Of a stretch of DNA of 36,146 nt, positions 23,331-29,993 are shown piece by piece. Where the stretch lies: NCBI GenBank assembly GCA_018303825.1, contig JAGVXK010000010.1:1-36146 (forward strand). Reading direction: 5' to 3'. Positions within the stretch are counted from its first letter, which is position 1; each line of letters opens with the position of its first letter. The notes under the pieces are model-generated. The model was not told the DNA's origin and did not search any database. It saw nothing but the letters and a program-made list of their open reading frames with translations. This stretch comes from Candidatus Pacearchaeota archaeon. Lineage in GTDB: Archaea; Nanobdellota; Nanobdellia; Pacearchaeales; GW2011-AR1. A program made the translations under genes and the position numbers.

Positions 23331-25739
23331 ATGAAACAAAAAAATAACAATAAGATGAAGAAGACTGAAAAGTCAAAGCAGGCGGGAATTTCAGCGGATT
23401 TATTAGAAAAGATGGATGCTTATTGGCGCGCAGCTAATTATCTTTCTGTAGGGCAGATATATCTTCTTAATAATCCATTGTTAAAAGAAAAATTAAAAAT
23501 TGAGCATGTCAAGCCCCGCTTGCTAGGGCATTGGGGCACAACTCCTGGATTGAATTTTATCTATGTTCATCTTAATAGATTGATAAAAGAAAAGAATTTG
23601 AACATGATTTACATAGCGGGACCTGGACATGGCGGCCCAGGATTAGTTGCTAATGCCTATCTAGAAGGAACATATACAGAATATTATCCAAAAATAACCC
23701 AAGATGAAAAAGGTATGCAAAAATTATTCAAGCAATTCTCATTTCCGGGAGGAATTCCAAGCCATGTTGCTCCAGAAACACCAGGTTCAATCCATGAGGG
23801 GGGAGAATTGGGATATTCTTTATCGCATGCATTTGGGGCAGCATTTGACAATCCTGATTTGATTGTTGCCTGTGTTATCGGAGATGGGGAAGCAGAAACA
23901 GGTCCATTAGCAACTGCCTGGCATTCAAATAAATTCCTAAATCCTGTAAAAGACGGGGCAGTTCTTCCTATTTTGCATTTAAATGGCTACAAAATAGCAA
24001 ATCCAACAATTCTTGCCAGGATTAATAAAGACGAATTGATAAAGTTGTTTGAAGGATATGGTTACAAGCCTTATTTTGTTGAAGGAAGTAATCCTAAAAC
24101 AATGCATCAGCTAATGGCTCAAACCCTAGATTTAGTAATAGCGGAGATAAAGCAAATCCAAAAGAATGCAAGAGATAATAACAAGCAGGAAAGACAGCTC
24201 TGGCCGATGATTATCTTAAGAAGTCCAAAAGGATGGACAGGTCCGAAGAAAGTTGATGGAAAACTAACCGAGAATTTTTGGAGGTCACATCAGGTTCCAT
24301 TATCTAATATCGCAACACAGCCAGCACATTTAGAACTATTGGAAAAATGGCTTAAGAGTTATAAGCTGGAGGAATTATTTGACAAAAAAGGAAAGCTTAT
24401 CCCAGAATTAGCATCATTAGCTCCCAAAGGAAAGTTTAGAATGAGCGACAATCCGGTTGCGAATGGGGGAATTCTCCGAGAGGATTTAAAAATGCCCGAT
24501 TTCAAGAGTTATGCAATTTTAATTCCTAAGCCCGCAGCAGTTGAGGCAGAAGCAACAAAAGTTACTGGAAGATTTTTAAGAGATGTGATAAAAATGAATC
24601 CTAAGAACTTCCGCCTTTTTGGCCCTGATGAAACATCTTCAAATAGATTAGATGCTGTTTTTGAAGCGACAAAGAAAGTCTGGCTTGCAAATTATCTTCC
24701 TGAGGATAAAGATGGAAGCCTGCTTGCTCCGGATGGAAGAGTTATGGAAATCCTAAGCGAGCACACCTGCGAAGGATGGCTTGAAGGTTATCTCTTGACT
24801 GGAAGACACGGTTTCTTTTCCTGTTATGAAGCTTTTATCCATATAATTGATTCAATGTTCAATCAGCATGCCAAATGGCTTCATGTCTGCAAGAAAAATA
24901 TTAAATGGAGAAAGCCAATTTCATCATTAAATATCTTATTAAGTTCACATGTTTGGAGGCAGGACCATAATGGATTTTCCCATCAGGACCCTGGTTTCAT
25001 AGATCATGTTGTAAATAAAAAGGCAGATGTTGTCCGAGTTTATCTTCCGGCTGATGCAAATACTCTCCTTTCCGTTGCTGATCACTGCTTGAAAAGCAAA
25101 GATTATGTAAATATCATTGTTGCAGGAAAACAGCCGGCTTTGCAATATCTTTCAATAGATGAAGCAATCAAGCATTGCGAAAAAGGAGCATCAATTTGGG
25201 AATGGGCAAGCAATGATAAGGGAAATCCGGATGTAGTTATTGCCTGTGCCGGAGATGTTCCAACAATGGAAGCTCTAGCTGCGATTTCAATATTAAGAAA
25301 GCAATTTCCCAAATTAAAAGTCAGGTTTGTAAATGTCGTAGATTTAATGGTTCTTCAAACCAAGAGTGAGCACCCCCATGGAATGCTAGATGCAGATTTT
25401 GATAAAATATTCACTAAAAACAAGCCAATAATATTTGCCTTCCACGGTTATCCTTGGCTGATTCACAGATTAACATACAGAAGAGCAAACCATGATAACA
25501 TTCATGTTAAAGGATACAAAGAGGAAGGAACAACCACAACTCCATTTGACATGGTTGTCCTGAATGACTTAGACAGGTTCCATCTTGTCAAAGATGTTAT
25601 AAGAAGAGTTCCAAAATTGAAATCATCAGGGAAAGCAGTAAGCAAAATGATGGAGGACAAACTATCAGCACATAAGAAATACATCCAGCAATATGGCAAG
25701 GACATGCCCGAAATAACAAGCTGGAAATGGACTGAATGA
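23331..25739 (+). CDS. xfp: Phosphoketolase (xylulose-5-P/fructose-6-P phosphoketolase family)
   Basis: [29 protein letters not shown] (TPP binding), [30 protein letters not shown]. Confidence 0.96.
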
Positions 25740-27235: not shown

Positions 27236-27422
27236 AACAATTAATTTTTTCAGACTATTAAAACTTTATGCCTCTCGAAAGCAATGTTTCATATGTAGGA
27301 TAAAACCCAATTATATATTTGCACCAATAGTCTATCTAGAGTATAATCTTATTATTTAACCAATAAGGGTGGCCATTCAATATCTAAAATAATATATTAA
27401 TTTGACATTAAAGGAAAAAATC

Positions 27423-27536
27423 GAAGACAGCATTGCTGTTTCGCCTCTTGACGGAGACTAGCGCAGGCAACGTAGCAAGCTTAGCTTCTGGGTTCGGAAT
27501 GTTACCAGGCGTTTCCTTGTTACTGTGGCCGTCTTC
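27423..27536 (-). rRNA. rrf: 5S rRNA, not adjacent to 16S/23S
   Basis: Reverse complement has helix I GAAGACGGC/GCTGTCTTC, the conserved CATTCCGAACCCAGAAGCTAAGC, and loop-E-like CTAGT/GCGAAAC; 114 nt. Confidence 0.93.
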
Positions 27537-27587: not shown

Positions 27588-27848
27588 ATGGCAAAGTCAG
27601 AGAAGCAGGAAGCAATAGCAAAAATATTAAAATTCTTTTCAAGAAAAAGGTTTTCACAGGAAGAATTAAAGAAAACCCGCAAGTTGGCAATGAAAAACAA
27701 GCTCAAACTAAGCCGGTTAAGGCAGTTTTACTGCCAATCTTGCTTCTCCCAATTAAAAGGACAAACAAGAATAGGTAAAAAAGAGAGATTATTATATAAA
27801 ACAGTAATATGCAGGAAGTGCAAGCATCCGAATAAGTTCAAAATCTAA
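27588..27848 (+). CDS. rnp4: RNase P protein subunit Rpp21 (Rnp4/Rpr2 zinc ribbon)
   Basis: LAMKNKLKL..., CQSC and CRKC zinc ligands; basic 86-aa protein. The ORF-track GTG start at 27525 overlaps the 5S gene, so ATG 27588 is used. Confidence 0.78.
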   Translation: MAKSEKQEAIAKILKFFSRKRFSQEELKKTRKLAMKNKLKLSRLRQFYCQSCFSQLKGQTRIGKKERLLYKTVICRKCKHPNKFKI

Positions 27849-29594: not shown

Positions 29595-29638
29595 GACCAA
29601 ATAACCCCTTAGTTTATTTATCCTTTAAAATAAAAAGT

Positions 29639-29964
29639 GTGAGTCGGGATTAGGCCAGATTCTGTCGAACTCTGTTCCATTTCTGGACAGACAGTTCGTG
29701 CTGACATCTGTCTATGCGTGCGGCTATGGCACTTGCATCAGCGAAGTCGCCCGTTTCATCCTTTCTCTTTCTTCTCAGATTCCCTCAAGGTTCATTTCTC
29801 TGAAAGAGCGGTGTCGTTTCTGTTGCGGAGCTCTCCCTCGCGAGAGCCTACTTTTCAATAGGTCGCTTCTTAATGATGTCCGGACCTTCCTCAGAAATAA
29901 AATTCATTTCTTTTGAACTTTTGCCAATTTAATGGCTATTTCCGTAGTCAGCTTCCCGACTCAC
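29639..29964 (-). ncRNA. rnpB: RNase P RNA
   Basis: P1 GTGAGTCGGGA/TCCCGACTCAC; P2 GCTGAC/GTCAGC; P4 AGG(U)CCGGA/TCTGGCCT with the bulged U; conserved GAGGAAGGTCC, GCAACAGAAAC, GATGAAAC, TAGACAGAT, ACAGAA. Confidence 0.95.
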
Positions 29965-29985: not shown

Positions 29986-29993
29986 CTTATAAG
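29986..29993 (-). promoter_or_regulatory. TATA box of rnpB (CTTATAAG)
   Basis: Located 22-29 nt upstream of the RNA 5' end, with a purine-rich BRE-like AAAAGG before it. A divergent TTTATAAG lies at 30027-30034. Confidence 0.6.

Follow-up and report, generated by a model that had tools for sequence, protein, structure and literature searches.

The window examined here is a 36,146-nucleotide stretch of DNA from a Candidatus Pacearchaeota archaeon, and its minus strand carries the gene for the RNA of ribonuclease P (RNase P) at 29639-29964. In a cmscan search, this segment matches the archaeal Rfam family RF00373 (RNaseP_arch) untruncated over model positions 1-288, scoring 134.9 bits where the gathering cut-off is 84 (E = 6e-38). 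The preliminary description of this DNA had read an RNase P RNA from the letters and named Infernal scans as a check, and the scan places the gene at the same coordinates. It is the sole RNase P match found in the whole window by the Rfam scan, and the only copy in the 0.8-Mb host genome. That genome (G000) is 86% complete, and gene absences in it are therefore provisional. Of 41 relatives, 36 have an RNase P RNA, as do 108 of the 121 genomes sampled across the class. Two other genomes have two matches each, G134 (C21:4022-4279 and C22:1746-2003) and G019 (on C60 and C5), which could be true duplicates or bin redundancy. The window also encodes a full-length phosphoketolase at 23331-25739 (plus strand; XFP N-terminal, central and C-terminal domains, E = 1e-181), here in a very small genome. 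The features of the gene, together with a protein gene close to it, are as follows.

29986..29991, minus strand: putative TATA-like box TTATAA, at about -28 to -23, read from the sequence
29639..29964, minus strand: RNase P RNA gene, 326 nt, from P1 to P1', covering the full RF00373 model, with P1 closing the molecule at both ends
29892..29944, minus strand: forked P3, from RNAalifold on an unguided alignment of 22 homologs
29937-29944 and 29892-29899, minus strand: outer stem of P3, from RNAalifold
29923-29936, minus strand: hairpin P3a with loop UUAAAU, from RNAalifold
29900-29920, minus strand: hairpin P3b, from RNAalifold
29879..29892, minus strand: CR-I and the 5' strand of P4 with its bulged U, from the Rfam alignment; pairing with 29650-29665 read from the sequence
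29847-29862, minus strand: P8, from the Rfam alignment and covariation
29833-29846, minus strand: P9 with a GCGA loop, from the Rfam alignment and covariation
29751..29823, minus strand: CR-II, P12 and CR-III, the T-loop anchor of the S domain, at high posterior probability against the Rfam consensus
29718..29735, minus strand: J5/15 (CAA, the "A anchor") and the capped P15, from the Rfam alignment and covariation
29666..29698, minus strand: P19 hairpin between P2' and the 3' strand of P4, a 30-nt insert relative to the Rfam model, with covariation
29650..29665, minus strand: CR-V and the 3' strand of P4, from the Rfam alignment and sequence reading
29626..29637, minus strand: oligo-U tract CUUUUUAUUUU directly after P1', read from the sequence
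27588..27848, plus strand: divergent Rpp21 of 86 aa with a CxxC...CxxC zinc ribbon, from an order-specific profile (E = 1.6e-5)

The gene is flanked by candidate expression signals. A purine-rich AAAAGG stretch precedes the TTATAA box, and boxes resembling YTTAAAAA lie at the same distance upstream of the homologs. At the other end, the oligo-U tract is likely an archaeal terminator.

Taken as a single sequence, the RNA folds more stably than its shuffled versions (MFE z-score -4.6), and its conserved core is complete. CR-I to CR-V and the P4 pseudoknot align to RF00373 at high posterior probability. P1 has 11 bp, P2 pairs GCUGAC with GUCAGC, and P4 pairs AGG(U)CCGGA with UCUGGCCU and has its bulged U intact, all as read from the sequence. 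P5, P7, P10/11, P12, CR-II, CR-III and CR-IV are present as well, P12 carries an AUGA/CUGA signature resembling a K-turn, and CR-II and CR-III are kept in all homologs. P8 (CCUAU/GUAGG) and P9 (CUCUC-GCGA-GGGAG) were both recovered, with compensatory changes, from an unguided alignment of 14 homologs with RNAalifold. Each of the helices that had been proposed from hand-folding (P1, P2, P3, P4, P5, P7-P12, P15 and P19) can be read in the RNA strand, and the S domain, which had been called intact, does contain P10/11, P12, CR-II and CR-III. The RNA departs from the Rfam consensus in the loop of P3, which has 41 nt versus 3 in the model, in the segment distal to P15, which has 5 nt versus about 35, and in 30 extra nt that follow the 3' strand of P2 ahead of CR-V.

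For the study of these departures, 30 order-level homologs were extracted and 5' ends that Infernal had clipped were corrected. Sub-regions of the homologs were then aligned by MAFFT without structural guidance, and the alignments were passed to RNAalifold. Invariant pairs proposed by RNAalifold, namely GC...GC around P15, GGU/ACC at P4/P5 and CUUC/GAGG around P3, were discarded as uninformative or spurious.

In the window RNA, J5/15 is CAA and P15 is GUGC-CAUAGCC-GCAC, a stem of 4 bp closed by a 7-nt loop. The capped P15 had been described beforehand with the loop CATAGCC at 29718-29732, which matches the sequence exactly, and covariation had been suggested as its check. In an alignment of 29 homologs, the P15 core (three pairs) is 100% paired, and each pair shows compensatory changes. 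For the nine P19 pairs, pairing is about 97% and compensatory changes occur in 9/9. Jointly, 97.9% of the cells for P15 and P19 are paired, 12/12 pairs are compensatory, and the covariation score is 0.951 versus 0.282.

The capped P15 leaves little space for the elements that normally surround it. Only 15-16 nt separate J5/15 from CR-IV in the window RNA, so P16 and P17 cannot fit. L15 contains no GGU, and J5/7 (AUUAAGA) has no partner for a P6. An alternative pairing that restores P6, P16 and P17 is ruled out by this 15-16 nt space and by the lack of a complement to J5/7 in L15, and the earlier claim that the molecule has no room for these helices and no GGU is thus upheld. The same segment measures 6-16 nt in 28 of 30 order-level loci and at most 16 nt in 26 of the 29 loci sampled at class level, which come from about 25 families. 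Exceptions at class level are L036 (59 nt, P15-P17-like), L041 (about 55 nt) and L046 (29 nt). A short capped P15 is therefore the norm of the class rather than a peculiarity of one genome.

Variation around this norm can be seen within the order. At L025 (1501-1648, minus strand), P15 is re-expanded to 56 nt and contains internal hairpins. Many order homologs (for example L006, L008, L010, L013, L015 and L017, and also L020-L022, L024-L027, L029 and L030) have an additional hairpin in J5/7, where P5.1 is found in bacterial type B and where the window RNA has AUUAAGA only.

The 41-nt loop that the Rfam model would assign to P3 is structured. P3 consists of an 8-bp outer stem from which two hairpins branch, P3a (GCCA/UGGC) and P3b (AAGUUCA/UGAAUUU). 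This branching into two hairpins, first noticed by eye, was recovered by the unguided alignment, in which 89.9% of cells are paired compared to 65.1% in shuffles and compensatory change is seen in 16 of 17 pairs. For covariation, the observed score of 0.709 compares with 0.277 in shuffles, none of 500 of which scored as high, and controls in which the partner strand was slid by 1-3 columns scored 0.235 or less. In addition, loop nucleotides are conserved in P3a (consensus UUAAAU) and, towards the 3' end, in P3b (AU), which argues for a specific contact. The forked P3 is found in 22 or more genera of the Pacearchaeales, in the family of the window and several sister families. A simple P3 hairpin is found in families f2, f5 and f8, at locus L027, and in class-level RNAs outside the order. 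At L018 (1417-1534, plus strand), two further hairpins follow the forked P3. The periphery of the RNA is thus changing rapidly within one family (L025, L018).

How this RNA relates to the recognised archaeal types depends on how strictly those types are defined. Type A requires L15, P16, P17 and P6, and type T is without most of the S domain (PMC3001054, PMC4919922, PMC7191817). In PMC3001054, which cites Harris 2001, type M is defined by the loss of P8 together with the loss of P6, P16, P17 and L15, and the definition is the same in PMC4919922 and PMC7191817. The window RNA has no L15 internal loop, P16, P17 or P6 pseudoknot, as type A would; it shows the loss of P6, P16, P17 and L15 that characterises type M, but not the loss of P8; and it contains P11, P12, CR-II and CR-III, all of which are missing in type T. 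The preliminary description was thus formally right that the RNA fits none of types A, M and T by their strict definitions.

It does not follow that the architecture was unrecognised. Chan et al. (2012) described a "novel type M variant" in Archaeoglobus profundus, A. veneficus and Ferroglobus placidus, in which P8 is present and L15, P16, P17 and P6 are absent (PMC3579882), and this is also the combination found in the window RNA. Moreover, according to a survey from 2026 that covered 298 RNase P RNAs of archaea, P6, and often all of P16/P17, were deleted independently in multiple archaeal lineages, the loss of P8 is a separate event, and P19 is sporadically lost (PMC12974513). A prior description of the fold, which had been named as something that would overturn the original claim, therefore exists for the P15/P8 part. 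No description of a bifurcated P3 in archaeal RNase P was found in the literature, and the sole P3 expansion mentioned is a eukaryote-type internal loop and helix (PMC12974513).

From this, two views of the molecule may be taken. It might represent a discrete fourth archaeal type beside A, M and T, defined by a capped P15, P8, P19 and a forked P3, since each of the strict definitions is violated and the fork is undescribed in the literature found and conserved, with covariation, in 22 or more genera. We consider this unlikely, because the P15/P8 combination and the recurrent loss of P6/P16/P17 have both been published, and the features vary continuously within the order: P3 is simple in f2, f5, f8 and L027, the P5.1-like hairpin is variable, and P15 is re-expanded at L025. 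Such variation leaves no discrete type, and the fork alone as new. The window RNA instead belongs to the described "type M with P8" grade, which is standard in the Nanoarchaeia. As this is a grade and not a clade, membership states architecture and not descent. The forked P3 is apparently a clade-specific elaboration that has so far gone undescribed. The reading preferred here, with a probability of about 0.88, is that a DPANN archaeon of Pacearchaeota type (Nanoarchaeia) has in this gene its single and functional RNase P RNA, of the type M-with-P8 grade and with P3b inserted in a sub-lineage.

The tRNA genes of the host are in keeping with an RNA of this kind, as had been noted before: ARAGORN finds CCA encoded in 0/32 of them.

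The protein subunits are harder to recognise. Pfam searches of the host genome find only a weak and short Rpp30, a protein of 148 aa that matches positions 68-211 of the 214 in the model. The gene (L031:1498-1944, minus strand, corresponding to G000 C22:73487-73930) encodes about 150 aa in the host family versus about 210 aa in sister families, and the host-family proteins match no more of the Pfam model than its C-terminal two thirds. Pop5, with about 90 aa, is short as well. An 84-aa ORF upstream of Rpp30, considered as its missing N-terminus or as Pop5, is actually an ASCH/DUF3850 protein. The apparent absence of Pop5 from the host genome by Pfam was overturned by a family profile, which finds it with E = 3e-27. 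Similarly, PF04032 misses Rpp21 across the host family (0/13), and the loss that this implied is refuted by matches to the order-specific profile, both in the window and in 3 of 4 other family genomes. The gene in the window, at 27588-27848, lies between 5S rRNA and tRNA-Phe genes, 1.8 kb from the RNase P RNA gene; hhalign assigns it to Rpp21 with 96.4% probability (E = 1e-9), and the zinc ribbon is intact. The 5S rRNA gene (27422-27536, minus strand; Rfam, 50.4 bits) stands alone, with no adjacent 23S rRNA gene, and overlaps the start listed for the 107-aa ORF in which Rpp21 lies. With L7Ae, which is also present, four of the five archaeal holoenzyme proteins were found in the host genome (Pop5, Rpp30, Rpp21 and L7Ae). 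Because Pfam misses both Pop5 and Rpp21 in the host family, inventories of "missing" subunits in DPANN archaea need lineage-specific profiles.

The gene might also be in decay or without function, tRNA 5' ends being supplied instead by leaderless transcription, as in Nanoarchaeum equitans, or by a protein-only enzyme. N. equitans shows that RNase P can be lost in DPANN archaea (PMC4919922), the host genome is tiny, and the fifth protein, Rpp29, was not found in it. This explanation is nevertheless very improbable, as the five conserved regions and the bulged U of P4 are intact, the helices covary across dozens of genera, the protein-only RNase P HARP was not found in the host genome, and the four protein subunits are retained.

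Rpp29 (PF01868) is found by Pfam in 101 of the 121 class genomes (about 83%) and in 0 of 13 from the host family, which are 91-100% complete except for G000 at 86%. Within the order, clear Rpp29 matches are confined to families f2, f5 and f8. An order-level Rpp29 profile built from these matches found nothing credible in 41 host-family genomes, and a class-level HMM built from 24 sequences gave a best E-value of 0.76 against all six-frame ORFs of G000. Genomic context points the same way. The Rpp29 slot has been identified by Samanta et al. as the best conserved locus of an RNase P protein (PMC4919917), and in G036 the gene occupies the canonical order uL29-SUI1-Rpp29-uS17. In 6/6 host-family genomes inspected, SUI1 adjoins uS17 and the slot is empty:

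G000 C23:24857-28057 (L083), and L201-L205: empty Rpp29 slot, with SUI1 and uS17 adjacent

Orphan ORFs lie between uS17 and uL14 in two of these loci, one of 99 aa (L083:1734-2033, plus strand, corresponding to G000 C23:26590-26889) and one of 116 aa (L204:1752-2102). They have no Pfam match and are dissimilar to each other. The 99-aa ORF was rejected as a displaced Rpp29, with an hhalign probability of 0.1% and no conservation in 40 relatives, and its counterpart by position in G085, the 116-aa ORF, is related neither to Rpp29 nor to the 99-aa ORF. Since three profiles are negative and the operon slot is empty, Rpp29 has likely been lost in truth from the host family.

The distribution of the fork resembles that of the loss. 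P3 is simple in 5/5 Rpp29-positive relatives with an RNase P RNA locus, and the fork is found in nearly all Rpp29-negative relatives of the order, which suggests a compensatory link between the two. RNA would then have compensated for protein, the loss of Rpp29 having led to the gain of P3b or the gain to the loss. The structure from M. jannaschii has Rpp30 on P2-P3 and fastened to Rpp29 (PMC6565675). P3b could possibly have taken over part of the role of Rpp29 in tying the Pop5-Rpp30 module to the remaining enzyme, a proposal that we regard as doubtful. Several observations make the exchange as a whole improbable, even with Rpp29 undetected by three profiles and its slot empty in all six genomes. 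A single split in the tree may account for the pattern, which could then be one event and no correlation. In L027 (G039, family f4), Rpp29 and the fork are both missing, and five genomes outside the order in which Rpp29 was undetected have a simple P3. Furthermore, Rpp29 of M. jannaschii touches the ends of P1 and P9 and not P3 (PMC6565675), and a very divergent Rpp29 might lie elsewhere in the genome, Pfam having also missed Rpp21 and Pop5.

A broader version, in which a sub-lineage of the Pacearchaeales has remodelled its RNase P by losing Rpp29, shortening Rpp30 and Pop5, gaining P3b and, through P19, acting as a monomer, with the fork replacing a protein contact, is tentative at best. This version would treat Rpp29 as a latch between the Pop5-Rpp30 and Rpp21-L7Ae modules, and if it were true, the fork would reverse the usual trend of RNase P evolution, in which proteins replace RNA.

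For the preferred reading, a functional RNA of the type M-with-P8 grade, a scheme of catalytic activity, protein dependence and protein binding sites may be proposed from the identity, helices, covariation, distribution and gene inventory observed in this analysis. The RNA would remove 5' leaders from pre-tRNA by means of P4 (CR-I/CR-V, with the bulged U), together with CR-IV and a 3-nt J5/15, the "A anchor". Its S domain is complete, with a P7-P10 cruciform that includes P8 and with the CR-II/CR-III T-loops, and its C domain is of the type M kind, in which P15 is a short capped hairpin and L15, P16, P17 and P6 are absent. Without these elements the RNA cannot base-pair with a substrate's 3'-RCCA, and it should therefore rely on two RNA anchors and on proteins. 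In the holoenzyme of M. jannaschii, the anchors are the central A of the 3-nt L5-15 and the T-loops of CR-II/CR-III, and the short capped P15 does not pair with RCCA (PMC6565675). The C domain would have Pop5 and the short Rpp30 as its partners, the S domain Rpp21 and L7Ae. An engineered P19 in M. jannaschii prevents the dimer that the natural enzyme forms (PMC6565675), and the natural P19 of the window RNA therefore predicts a monomer. The class-wide loss of P6/P16/P17 was probably independent of the losses in Methanococcales and Archaeoglobales. Within the order, one sub-lineage has in addition inserted P3b, turning P3 into a three-way junction with conserved loop nucleotides. P19 is kept.

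RNase P is a standard model of how a ribozyme trades RNA structure for protein. The loss of the RCCA-reading module, in the manner of type M, is the default in a huge uncultured class of archaea, and this blurs the A/M/T typology. The forked P3, with its conserved loops, is a clade-specific expansion of RNA on a helix that Rpp30 contacts. In addition, the host lineage is flagged by the apparent disappearance of an otherwise near-universal gene, Rpp29, from the most conserved locus of an RNase P protein. If the fork and the loss of Rpp29 are linked, these small and simple enzymes would be suited to reconstitution and cryo-EM.

Among known systems, the eukaryal nuclear RNase P and MRP RNAs share with the window RNA an enlarged P3, P19 and the absence of pairing between L15 and RCCA. 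The P3 domain of the eukaryal RNAs is bound by Pop6/Pop7 and Pop1. The catalytic domain had been called eukaryote-like in the preliminary description, and P19 and the enlarged P3 do recall the eukaryal RNAs; however, eukaryal P3 is not forked but runs from helix to internal loop to helix, whereas P3 in the window RNA is a three-way junction with two hairpins, so that the likeness is one of analogy only. Type A RNAs, represented by Pyrococcus and Methanothermobacter and forming the bulk of RF00373, have the same helix order, P8, P9 and S domain as the window RNA, and both are without P13, P14 and P18. In the window RNA, 15 nt stand in place of the L15 internal loop, P16, P17 and P6 pseudoknot of type A.

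The type M RNA of M. jannaschii (PDB 6K0A/6K0B; PMC6565675) resembles the window RNA in its short P15 with a small loop, in the absence of RCCA pairing, in the 3-nt J5/15 A anchor and in the T-loop anchor of CR-II/CR-III, and M. jannaschii and the host have the Pop5, Rpp30, Rpp21 and L7Ae families in common. M. jannaschii, however, is without P8 and P19, has a dimeric holoenzyme and possesses Rpp29 (PMC6565675), while the window RNA has P8, P19 and a forked P3, and its host an Rpp30 of about 150 aa and no Rpp29 that could be found.

The closest parallel in architecture is the type M variant of the Archaeoglobaceae, which, like the window RNA, has no L15, P16, P17 or P6 and has a capped P15, P8 and a full S domain. 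The window RNA has a P19 supported by covariation and a forked P3, in a comparison made with the published description of the Archaeoglobaceae variant. Because the two lineages are unrelated, one belonging to the Euryarchaeota and the other to the DPANN archaea, their resemblance is probably convergent.
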